Shown piece after piece: positions 15,001 through 18,000 of a stretch of DNA of 51,153 nucleotides. Position numbers: made by a program. The DNA is from a virus (lineage: Duplodnaviria > Heunggongvirae > Uroviricota > Caudoviricetes). The stretch lies in the IMG/VR virus record IMGVR_UViG_2939521961_000005. One strand, written 5' to 3'. Numbering within the stretch: the first letter of the stretch is position 1; each line of letters opens with the position of its first letter.

Positions 15001-18000
15001 ATCCAGTTGTGAGTTAATCAACGCTGATTGCCTGGAATTTATCCAGACCTTACCGGAAAACTCTGTCGATCTGATAGTCACAGACCCGCCATACTTTAAA
15101 GTGAAGCCCGAGGGCTGGGATAACCAGTGGGAGGGCGACGATGATTACCTGAAATGGCTGGACCAGTGTCTGGCGCAGTTCTGGCGGGTACTGAAGCCTG
15201 CCGGAAGTCTTTACCTGTTCTGTGGTCATCGCCTGGCATCTGACACCGAAATCATGATGCGTGAGCGCTTTAATGTGCTGAACCACATTATCTGGGCGAA
15301 GCCGTCCGGACGCTGGAACGGGTGCAATAAGGAAAGTCTGCGGGCGTATTTTCCGGCAACAGAGCGCATTCTGTTTGCAGAACATTATCAGGGACCGTAT
15401 CGCCCGAAAGATGATGGCTATGTGGAGCAGGGGCGCGAGCTAAAACAGCACGTCATGGCCCCGCTGATTTCTTACTTTCGTGATGCGCGTAAATCACTGG
15501 GAATAACGTCAAAACAGATAGCGGAAGCCACCGGAAAGAAAAACATGGCTTCGCACTGGTTTGGTATCAGTCAGTGGCAGTTACCGAACGAGGGTGATTA
15601 CAACAAATTGCAGGCGTTGTTTGCGCGTGTTGCGGCAGAAAAACATCAGCGCGGGGAACTGGAAAAGCCACACCACCAGCTGGTCAGCACATACAGTGAG
15701 CTGAACCGGCAGTATACGGAACTGCTGAGTGAATATAAAAATTTGCGGCGGTATTTCGGTGTGACGGCGCAGGTTCCGTACACCGATGTCTGGACGCATA
15801 AACCGGTGCAGTACTATCCAGGGAAACATCCGTGCGAAAAACCGGCAGAAATGCTGCAGCAGATAATCAACGCGAGCAGTCGTCCGGGAGACCTGGTTGC
15901 AGATTTTTTTATGGGTTCAGGTTCAACGGTAAAAGCGGCGATGGCACTGGGGCGTTGTGCGATTGGTGTTGAGCTGGAGACCGGACGCTTTGAACAGACA
16001 GTCAGGGAAGTTCAGGATTTAATCGTTTGAAACGGATGAGATTGCAGAATTAATTACGCACCATTATTATTCTGCTCCCGGCCCTTTAGCTCAGTGGTGA
16101 GAGCGAGCGACTCATAATCGCCAGGTCGCTGGTTCAAATCCAGCAAGGGCCACCATCACAAACCGCCATTAGCTTATCAGGAAGAGCAGACGACACCATA
16201 ACAGGGTTGTTGGTGCGGGGGCGGGTCCCCGATGGCGGTCCATTATCGGTATTCTGCGTTGTTAGCTCAGCCGGACAGAGCAATTGCCTTCTAAGCAATC
16301 GGTCAGTGGTTCGACTCCACTACAACGCGCCACACTTATTTTCCAGGCTCGCTTCGGCGGGCCTTTTTTGTATCTGCGCCACGCCCGGCGCATATCAACC
16401 ACAGAGCCTTTCGGGGGTGAGCTTACGGAGTGGTCAGTGTGACTTTCTCTGTGGGCAGATCGCTCCCGGGCGTTGGCTCACCCACCCAAAGGAACGTCAC
16501 GATGTTTGGAATCTTCAAAAAGAAAACCCGCAGAGCGGCAGCGGAAATTAAAAAGTTTGAGAAACGCGATCTGGCACAGGCGGTGATTAACGCTGCATAC
16601 CTGGTGGCCTATGCAGATGGTGAATGCGAGGCATCCGAGAAAGCGAAGATCGAACAGGTCTTACGTAATCAGCCTGCGTTGTCTGCGTTTACCTCGGAAA
16701 TTAATGCGATTAGCGCAACTATTATCGGTCAGCTGGATACCAATTTTAAAATTGGTCGTCGTGCCGCGTTACGCGAGATTGAGGATGTGAAACACGATAC
16801 GCGTGAAGCGGAAGATGTGCTGGATGTGGCGGTGGCCATTGCGGAGGCAGACGGCGAAATTGAGCCGGAAGAGCGCAAGGTGCTGGAAGAGATTGCCGGT
16901 GTTCTGGGTCTTCGTCTGGAGAATCACCTGTGACGGTAAAACTGCGCCTGGCTGTGGCTGCACTCCTGCTGTTTCTGGTGGTGATGGTGGATTTCACCAG
17001 CAGAATCATGTCGGTGCTGGCGGATGGGGTGCTGGTCTGCGGCATTGTGGTATTGCTGTGGCCGGTGATAAAAAGAAACAGCCTGCATAATGCTTGGTTT
17101 TTTTGTTTGCTGTTTATTAAAAACACTTCTGCATGGTGAATCCCCCTGTGCGGAGGGGCGATCAGCAACCAGGTATATGGGATAATCGCGGATTCAGGTG
17201 CTGATACTGAATTCACCGGGAGGCACCCGGCACCATACAAGAAAAAGAATGTGCATGCAAACATGCCCCTCTCCGGAGGGGCTTTTTTATGGGTAAAAAA
17301 TGCCCGAATGGGTTCGGGCAATAGCATGAGATACTGATATTGTTGTGTTGTTATCGTGTGGATTTTAACCAGGGTTTATCAGGCTGCGCAACTGCGTGGC
17401 CTTTTTTCATTTCTTGGGCTGTAGTCCCCGTGTGTCATTCAGGCTTCCGGACTACAGCCCACTCCATATCTGATTTAATACACTATCCCGGCCGGGAGGA
17501 ATAATGACATTTAAACATTATGATGTTGTCAGGGCGGCGTCGCCGTCAGACCTTGCGGAAAAGCTGACACACAAACTGAAAGAGGGCTGGCAGCCGTTTG
17601 GTAGTCCGGTGGCCATAACCCCTTATACCCTGATGCAGGCGATTACAGCAGAAGGTGATGTGGTGGTCAGTGGTGCAACTGAGCCGGATTGGTACTACGT
17701 CATCGTACTGGCCGGGCAGTCCAATGCCATGGCTTACGGTGAAGGGCTTCCGCTGCCGGATTCATACGATGCTCCGGATCCGCGCATTAAACAGCTGGCG
17801 CGCCGCAGTACAGTGACGCCGGGTGGGGCTGCCTGCAGATATAACGATATTATTCCGGCCGACCACTGCCTGCATGATGTGCAGGATATGAGTACGCTGA
17901 ATCATCCGAAGGCAGACCTGAGCAAAGGGCAGTACGGCTGTGTCGGCCAGGGCTTACATATTGCCAAAAAACTGCTTCCGTATATCCCGAATAACGCGGG

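Follow-up and report, generated by a model that had tools for sequence, protein, structure and literature searches.

The window analyzed here is a stretch of 51,153 nucleotides of tailed phage DNA (Caudoviricetes; IMG/VR record IMGVR_UViG_2939521961_000005). The region of interest runs, in order, through a DUF968/HNH gene, RusA, a Q-type late antiterminator gene, a terminator-like site, a DNA methylase gene, an ileZ-type tRNA gene, the tRNA-like element that is the subject of this report, an argO-type tRNA gene, and a terminator-like hairpin. The Q-type gene occupies 13766-14320 on the plus strand (Pfam DUF1133, E = 4.7e-101; Phage_antitermQ, E = 1.5e-06), and a hairpin scan placed a terminator-like hairpin downstream of it at 14817-14834. 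The methylase gene (14981-16030, plus strand; Pfam N6_N4_Mtase, E = 2.6e-44) lies directly 5' of the tRNA cluster. The same order of methylase and then tRNA genes is annotated in AP012536, an Stx2 phage, and in AJ298298, phage phiP27.

ARAGORN calls two tRNA genes in the window, both on the plus strand and both functional-looking. These are an ileZ-type tRNA with anticodon CAT at 16080-16155 (tRNA-Ile2 by annotation; Rfam score 72.5 bits) and an argO-type tRNA-Arg with anticodon TCT at 16256-16332 (67.3 bits), and PGAP names the same two genes tRNA-Ile and tRNA-Arg in an identical O157:H7 locus. Just 3' of the cluster, the hairpin scan found a terminator-like hairpin with a T run (16345-16364, plus strand), beyond which follow a TerB-family gene, where Stx phages carry stx, and then a SASA esterase gene. 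The region is the late operon of an stx-less lambdoid prophage of E. coli. Given this placement, the element is presumably co-transcribed with ileZ and argO.

The 100-nt spacer between the two tRNA genes holds the element proper, an 80-nt tRNA-like remnant at 16163-16242 on the plus strand that we call variant A. Sequence and alignments delimit it by a 7-nt spacer, TCACAAA (16156-16162), on the 5' side and the 13-nt spacer TTATCGGTATTCT (16243-16255) on the 3' side, both on the plus strand. The 5' strand of the acceptor stem, CCGCCAT (16163-16169), pairs perfectly over 7 bp with ATGGCGG (16232-16238), which is followed by the discriminator T (16239) and an encoded CCA (16240-16242). A repeat search recovered the same helix as an 8-nt, 100% complementary inverted repeat, ACCGCCAT/ATGGCGGT, at 16162-16169 and 16232-16239, with its arms 62 nt apart. 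The D arm (16172-16187) consists of the stem GCTT (16172-16175)/GAGC (16184-16187), including one U-G pair, and the 8-nt loop ATCAGGAA, as seen in the sequence, in the minimum free energy (MFE) fold, and in comparison with xtpA and argN alleles. This loop retains A14, G18, G19, and A21, and U8 is present as the T at 16170, as expected of a tRNA D arm. The T arm (16216-16231), placed by alignment with phiP27 and argN and by the allele tables, has the stem CGGGG (16216-16220)/CCCCG (16227-16231) and a 6-nt loop, GCGGGT. Compared with TTCGAGT, this loop has T54 deleted and carries T55G and A58G, so that the window element lacks the 7-nt T loop (T54-Psi55-C56-R57-A58; consensus TTCRANN) of a tRNA.

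The center of the element is aberrant. The segment AGACGACACCATAACAGGGTTGTTGGTG (16188-16215, plus strand) stands in place of position 26, the anticodon arm, and the variable loop; it offers no 5-bp stem with a 7-nt loop, and it is homologous to the center of xtpA, a chromosomal sequence described below. Inspection of the sequence and the MFE fold showed that an anticodon arm with a 5-bp stem and a 7-nt loop containing U33 is impossible within the 27 nt from 16189 to 16215. The best candidate anticodon stem, ACGAC/GUUGU, closes an 11-nt loop. The center is instead predicted to fold as the hairpin CACCAUAAC-AGG-GUUG(U)UGGUG, and the MFE structure of the element is cloverleaf-like, with this long triloop hairpin where the anticodon arm would be. 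An initial annotation of the spacer, made from the window alone, had described the acceptor stem, the T-CCA end, and D-arm- and T-arm-like stems, all of which are present. It had also reported a missing canonical anticodon arm and a non-canonical T loop, and the 11-nt best loop, the triloop in the MFE fold, and the 6-nt T loop bear this out.

The fold stability of the element is unremarkable (z = -1.53). Its 5' 20-mer is found a single time in the window, where 0.01 occurrences would be expected. It is homology, rather than thermodynamic stability, that disfavors a chance origin. A direct repeat, AGCAAGGGCCACCATCACA/AGCAGACGACACCATAACA, with 74% identity was treated as chance.

We used two detectors to look for a tRNA in the spacer. 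ARAGORN did not call the element at default settings, with -ps, -ps90, -ps80, or -ps70, in intron mode (-i), or in tmRNA mode; at -ps70, the program already yields spurious reverse-strand calls. The Rfam tRNA model (RF00005; gathering score 29 bits) left the element below threshold and unmatched at E ≤ 10, both in a 701-nt search and on 95 nt alone. Weak Rfam matches to YrlA, mir-497, and snoU82P on the element region were regarded as noise, and no credible family emerged. The initial annotation had named the lack of a tRNA-like score as an outcome that would speak against its reading, and formally this is what ARAGORN and the Rfam model returned. Since the detectors give no tRNA-like score, tRNA ancestry must rest on homology, which does support it.

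The source of this homology is argN, a gene named after phage 933W. According to the initial annotation, the usual description of Stx-type phages gives them three tRNA genes at this place, and phage Stx2a_1447 (AP012536) indeed carries ileZ, argN, and argO upstream of stx2. Flanked by ileZ and argO in the late operon, the element thus holds the argN position. ARAGORN identifies argN as a 77-nt tRNA-Arg(TCG) at 1606-1682 of locus L001, and it finds only two tRNAs each in the window, phiP27, and mEp460. An alignment with argN of Stx phages, which the initial annotation had proposed as a check, shows the element to be collinear with argN. The acceptor stem CCGCCAT/ATGGCGG, the discriminator T, and CCA are the same in both, and little or nothing differs in the TA after the acceptor stem, the 5' half of the D arm, the T stem, or the 13-nt spacer downstream. 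The remainder differs. argN is called by ARAGORN and PGAP and has a CCAGC/GCTGG stem, a CTTCGAA loop with anticodon TCG, and a TTCGAGY T loop, whereas the 80-nt element has an unrelated center and a degenerate T loop and is called by neither. The middle reads AGAGCAGACGACACCATAACAGGGTTGTTGGTG in the window and CAGAGCGCCAGCCTTCGAAGCTGGCTGC in argN. Homology to argN therefore does not extend over the whole gene, as the arms are homologous but the center, including the anticodon arm CCAGC-CTTCGAA-GCTGG, is not. Arginyl-tRNA synthetase recognizes A20, C35, and U or G at position 36 as identity elements. The element has A20, and no anticodon can be assigned to it. A search of the accessible literature on ileZ, argN, and argO found nothing relevant.

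The variant is not peculiar to the window, as it is also found in phiP27, in mEp460, and in many E. coli genomes. The tRNA cluster matches 289 phage records, with identities of 96% for mEp460, 92% for phiP27, and 88% for Stx2 phages. In phiP27 (AJ298298), an Stx2e phage, the segment between ileZ and argO is the same variant, and its center equals that of the window except for one G/C difference, the window allele carrying the minority C at 16198. phiP27 keeps the canonical T loop TTCGAGT, yet it has a G-G mismatch in the T stem, while the window allele has GCGGGT. mEp460 likewise carries the variant, its 96% identity extending over the cluster. Neither record has a gene annotated in this segment; of tRNA genes, the phiP27 record lists only ileZ and argO, and the mEp460 record lists none.

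Among 5426 complete E. coli genomes, variant A is present in 1754, about a third, and it was left unannotated by PGAP in all of the sampled rows (38/38). The canonical argN spacer is present in 1061 of the 5426, annotated as tRNA-Arg. The variant is thus very common, roughly like canonical argN, a frequency that speaks against a pseudogene. The individual alleles carry lesions in precisely those features that define a tRNA, which points to relaxed constraint. Only 2 of 15 variant A alleles keep a TTCRANN T loop, and a poly-G tract at the start of the T arm ranges from G5 to G14. Four alleles have U8G, loci L204 and L220 have the acceptor mismatch ATGACGG, and the L114 allele has a 1-nt deletion. 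Of 55 variant A loci, only 6 retain every arm feature. An intact acceptor helix was seen in 14 of 15 alleles, a figure inflated by several scans that required an intact acceptor; subject to that scan design, an acceptor helix intact in most alleles also speaks against a pseudogene.

Lesions in the argN slot are not confined to variant A. An argN-type anticodon arm is still present at 93 loci, of which only 53 look intact, and A58G, acceptor mismatches, and CTCGGGT loops recur. The argN slot decays generally in many lineages. Our first comparison of nucleotide diversity between the element, the tRNAs, and the spacers was biased and set aside, as its loci had been chosen with patterns that fix most of the element, and an anchor-based re-sampling still mixes in earlier loci. 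Diversity of the element is low, but close relatedness and mosaicism among the alleles keep selection from being told apart from recent spread.

We found a relative of the aberrant center by scanning one genome per species for the D-loop signature of the variant. Besides the prophage variant, its hits included a tRNA-like sequence of 81 nt that belongs to the core chromosome in E. coli, Shigella, E. albertii, E. whittamii, E. ruysiae, and E. sp. E1V33. It lies between yahL and yahM in 5170 of the 5426 complete E. coli genomes, and in K-12 it falls inside xtpA (b4845, 345252-345434). RegulonDB v12 credits xtpA to a 2022 paper by Muto et al. (J Biochem 171:459), whose title is given in PMC10767902. 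The 81-nt sequence is identical at 81/81 positions in E. albertii, E. whittamii, E. ruysiae, E. sp. E1V33, and E. coli isolates other than O157, and the flanks diverge; the S. flexneri and O157 sequences each differ at one position. The conserved xtpA copy implies that such a sequence can be under selection in another setting, which is a further point against reading the element as a pseudogene. The abstract of Muto et al. reportedly states that the xtpA sequence resembles an arginine tRNA of pathogenicity islands and phages.

The window element and the xtpA sequence have the same acceptor stem and D arm, the GGAAGAGCAGACGACA segment of D loop and center, and a homologous center, and like the element the xtpA sequence is unmatched by the Rfam tRNA model. 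The D-arm signature of the element, GGAAGAGCA, is of the xtpA type and not the argN type, and the first 33 nt of phiP27/L034-type alleles are identical to the xtpA sequence. A shuffle test on the 28-nt centers gave z = 5.2 for the variant against xtpA, a score reached by 0-1 of 3000 shuffles. The variant center against the argN anticodon arm gave z = 0.3-1.1, at chance level. The T loop of the variant, where intact, is of the argN type (GAGTCC) and not the xtpA type (GAGGCC). The two sequences also differ in setting. xtpA is chromosomal, with its own conserved TTGACA-17-CATAAT promoter, a leaderless ATG, and an intact TTCGAGG T loop, and is annotated within a 60-amino-acid ORF. In the window, the element belongs to the late operon of a prophage rather than lying between yahL and yahM, it has none of the promoter, ATG, ORF, or intact T loop, and its center differs by two indels and ~4 substitutions.

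We read the element as a chimera, with an xtpA-type D loop and center in an argN-type frame, because its center matches xtpA and not argN. From the alignments, a chimera or a separate lineage is the best reading, rather than an argN worn down by point mutation. Like tRNA pseudogenes in general, the element combines recognizable tRNA ancestry with the loss of decoding features. It differs from them in that its anticodon domain appears swapped for a segment of a homologous family and not eroded by point mutation alone. The initial annotation's "degenerate third tRNA" is therefore a fair label. The argN slot, the homology of the arms, and the lack of a detector call all agree with it, but the center is not a point-mutated argN anticodon arm. 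A reading of the 5' part of xtpA as a decayed ileZ was rejected by a shuffle test (z = -0.24), the 3' flank of xtpA, a possible decayed argO, gave z = 2.67 (41 of 2000 shuffles), and matches in a viral scan with GGAAGAGCAG...TTCGAGGCC were almost all chance hits in coding DNA.

Several other explanations of the element were considered. It could be a functional tRNA mimic, in which the acceptor and D scaffold is kept to bind proteins that handle or target tRNA, either as a decoy or as a platform for processing the flanking tRNAs, with no constraint on the anticodon domain. Several distinct lineages do retain these acceptor and D arms, and the T arm, around aberrant centers: variant A, xtpA, the L134 and L086/L187 types, and the C33 "Lys(ttt)" form (PhiR47_1, L207). 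The Rfam tRNA model matches none of the aberrant-center forms tested. The wide distribution of the variant and the strong conservation of the xtpA copy, with its own conserved promoter, point the same way. However, features of the L shape are lost or unstable in variant A (T54/T55/A58, U8G, and 5-14 G in the T arm), the L134 and L086 types are uncommon (found at 1 locus and 2 loci, respectively), and the conservation of xtpA may reflect coding of a peptide and not the RNA, going by the title of Muto et al. as given in PMC10767902. We consider a functional mimic the main alternative, but an unlikely one. A broader form of this idea would make the variant A, xtpA, L134, and L086 forms one old phage-borne class of tRNA mimics with a scaffold kept to bind proteins that process or target tRNA and a diversifying anticodon domain, with xtpA born from such a prophage element and the window copy a possibly decaying member; we give this history only a slim chance.

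The element could also be part of an xtpA-like small protein gene, whose leaderless mRNA would read through the tRNA-like sequence. The frame equivalent to XtpA runs open through the element (16090-16551), with an XtpA-like TAISLSGRADD... as its predicted product, but it has no in-frame start codon upstream of the element, the first being a TTG at 16207 inside it. A scan upstream found no promoter-like site on the plus strand, where ileZ abuts the element, and the ORF has no Pfam match. Furthermore, the frame is shifted among alleles whose poly-G tracts differ in length by 1, 4, 6, 7, 8, and 10 nt. With neither a start codon nor a stable frame, we rejected the XtpA-like ORF in the window, and such a gene is very improbable here. 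There is next to no chance that the element is a canonical or intron-containing tRNA that the initial annotation misfolded. Its acceptor stem, D arm, T stem, and CCA are intact, but the ARAGORN and Rfam outcomes, which include the intron search and the search on 95 nt alone, refute this, and the 6-nt T loop without T54/T55/A58 and the best anticodon stem closing 11 nt stand against it as well. Fragments of tRNA genes are common at prophage ends, and the fold stability of the element is not exceptional, so one could imagine that phage integration left part of a duplicated tRNA gene behind (an att-site scar) or that the inverted repeat arose by chance. The element, however, is full length with both acceptor strands, it is inside the late operon between two tRNA genes and not at a prophage end, and the alignments that make it collinear with argN in related phages contradict a scar or a chance repeat, to which we attach a negligible probability.

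Lambdoid and Stx-type prophages have the ileZ-argN-argO cluster in their late operon, flanked by the methylase gene and the site of toxin or accessory genes. The element that fills the argN slot here is probably a pseudo-tRNA that does not decode, a chimera with an xtpA-type center that persists between two selected tRNA genes. It keeps the acceptor helix, D arm, T stem, and encoded CCA of the argN type. Where the anticodon domain should be, it has 27 nt homologous to the center of xtpA, and the T loop of the window allele has lost the tRNA-elbow residues T54, T55, and A58. We propose that an argN-type gene recombined with an xtpA-type tRNA-like sequence to give rise to the element, for which the identical arms would offer ~25-33 nt of homology per side, and that the element then drifted. 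Late transcription from the Q-dependent promoter would passively include it along with ileZ and argO. Its excision by RNase P and 3' trimming is still plausible because the acceptor helix is intact, and the product would be neither aminoacylated nor used in translation. A pseudo-tRNA of this kind would persist only through being wedged between two selected tRNA genes.

For annotation, treating the element as a pseudo-tRNA derived from argN accounts for the presence of two rather than three tRNAs in some Stx-type and lambdoid prophages. In ~1/3 of complete E. coli genomes, this 80-nt element sits unannotated between two prophage tRNA genes. The element is common and probably functionless, and it leaves the current understanding of phage biology and toxin expression unchanged. 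The match of its center to xtpA is the only modestly new point, and the rest is ordinary. Erosion of the argN slot in many lineages suggests that these phages depend far less on a UCG arginine tRNA than on ileZ and argO. The xtpA match ties a recently described E. coli small-protein gene to an element of prophage tRNA clusters, and the shared sequence hints at exchange between phage and chromosome through short identical arms.

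Damage in the argN slot is not confined to the window. In many prophages (loci L203-L237 and others) the anticodon arm of argN is intact and other arms are damaged, with A58G T loops (TTCGGGT), CTCGGGT loops, and acceptor mismatches (GAAGGCGG, ATGGCAA). One prophage locus, L057, is a mosaic that joins an argN anticodon arm to the degenerate loop (GGCGGGT) seen in variant A, the tRNA-like remnant in the window, and this combination suggests that recombination has taken place within the argN-slot gene. The G homopolymer that opens the T arm (window 16217-16221 and the corresponding positions in L005, L006, L082, L112, and L113) also varies, ranging from 5 to 14 G among alleles, probably by slippage.

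The neighboring argO gene shows a different kind of change. Between the window and Stx2a_1447 (L001), its T stem carries a compensated pair (CAGTGG...CCACTA in the window, CACTGG...CCAGTA in Stx2a_1447), and one T-loop base also differs (positions 16305/16309/16315). The compensated change is the pattern that would be expected under structural constraint, in contrast to the adjoining element. On the other side of the element, the 3' terminus of ileZ together with the spacer that follows (16142-16160, AGCAAGGGCCACCATCACA) resembles the element center (16185-16203, AGCAGACGACACCATAACA) at 14/19 positions, a likeness that is probably due to chance.

In other Escherichia coli lambdoid phages, the second slot after ileZ holds a relative with an unchanged body and the anticodon loop CCTTTAA, in which C33 replaces U33. 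This form was found at 609-685 of L240 (phage PhiR47_1), at 609-685 of L241 (vB_EcoM-606R7), and in L207/L217. ARAGORN calls it tRNA-Lys(ttt), and it is left out of the depositor's tRNAscan-style annotation of ON470580. Two further aberrant relatives have xtpA-like arms, one at 4028-4105 of L134 (Enterobacteriaceae bacterium MGYG-HGUT-00110) and the other in the IMG/VR loci L086 (237-314) and L187. Both are immediately followed by tRNA-Thr(tgt), with tRNA-Gly(tcc) also following in L134, and both have an STnc100 sRNA match downstream. Forced ARAGORN calls gave Leu(taa) and Ser(gct), and the Rfam tRNA model matched neither form.

We aligned the chromosomal xtpA locus across Escherichia species (L128-L141) and found a conserved block with sharp edges, located at 2213-2415 of L190 (about 345212-345414 of E. 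coli K-12, NC_000913.3). The block begins with a TTGACA-17-CATAAT promoter, followed by a leaderless ATG, 82 nt, and the 81-nt tRNA-like sequence, whose 3' end is overlapped by the PGAP yahM CDS. The tRNA-like sequence is identical at 81/81 positions in non-O157 E. coli isolates, E. albertii, E. whittamii, E. ruysiae, and E. sp. E1V33, and it differs at one position in S. flexneri and likewise at one in O157. Farther upstream, the DNA is unrelated from species to species, and E. whittamii and E. ruysiae lack the yahM region.

A weak Rfam STnc100 match in the window (16271-16375, + strand; 20 bits, E=0.043) spans the 3' part of argO and the terminator hairpin at 16345-16364; the matches in L134 and L086 are full and lie ~600 nt 3' of the tRNA clusters. 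Beyond the hairpin, a TerB-family gene (16430-16933, + strand; Pfam TerB, E=6.8e-16) occupies the position of stxAB in Stx phages, followed by a SASA-family esterase gene (17504-19354). Therefore, the window prophage is an stx-less relative of Stx prophages.
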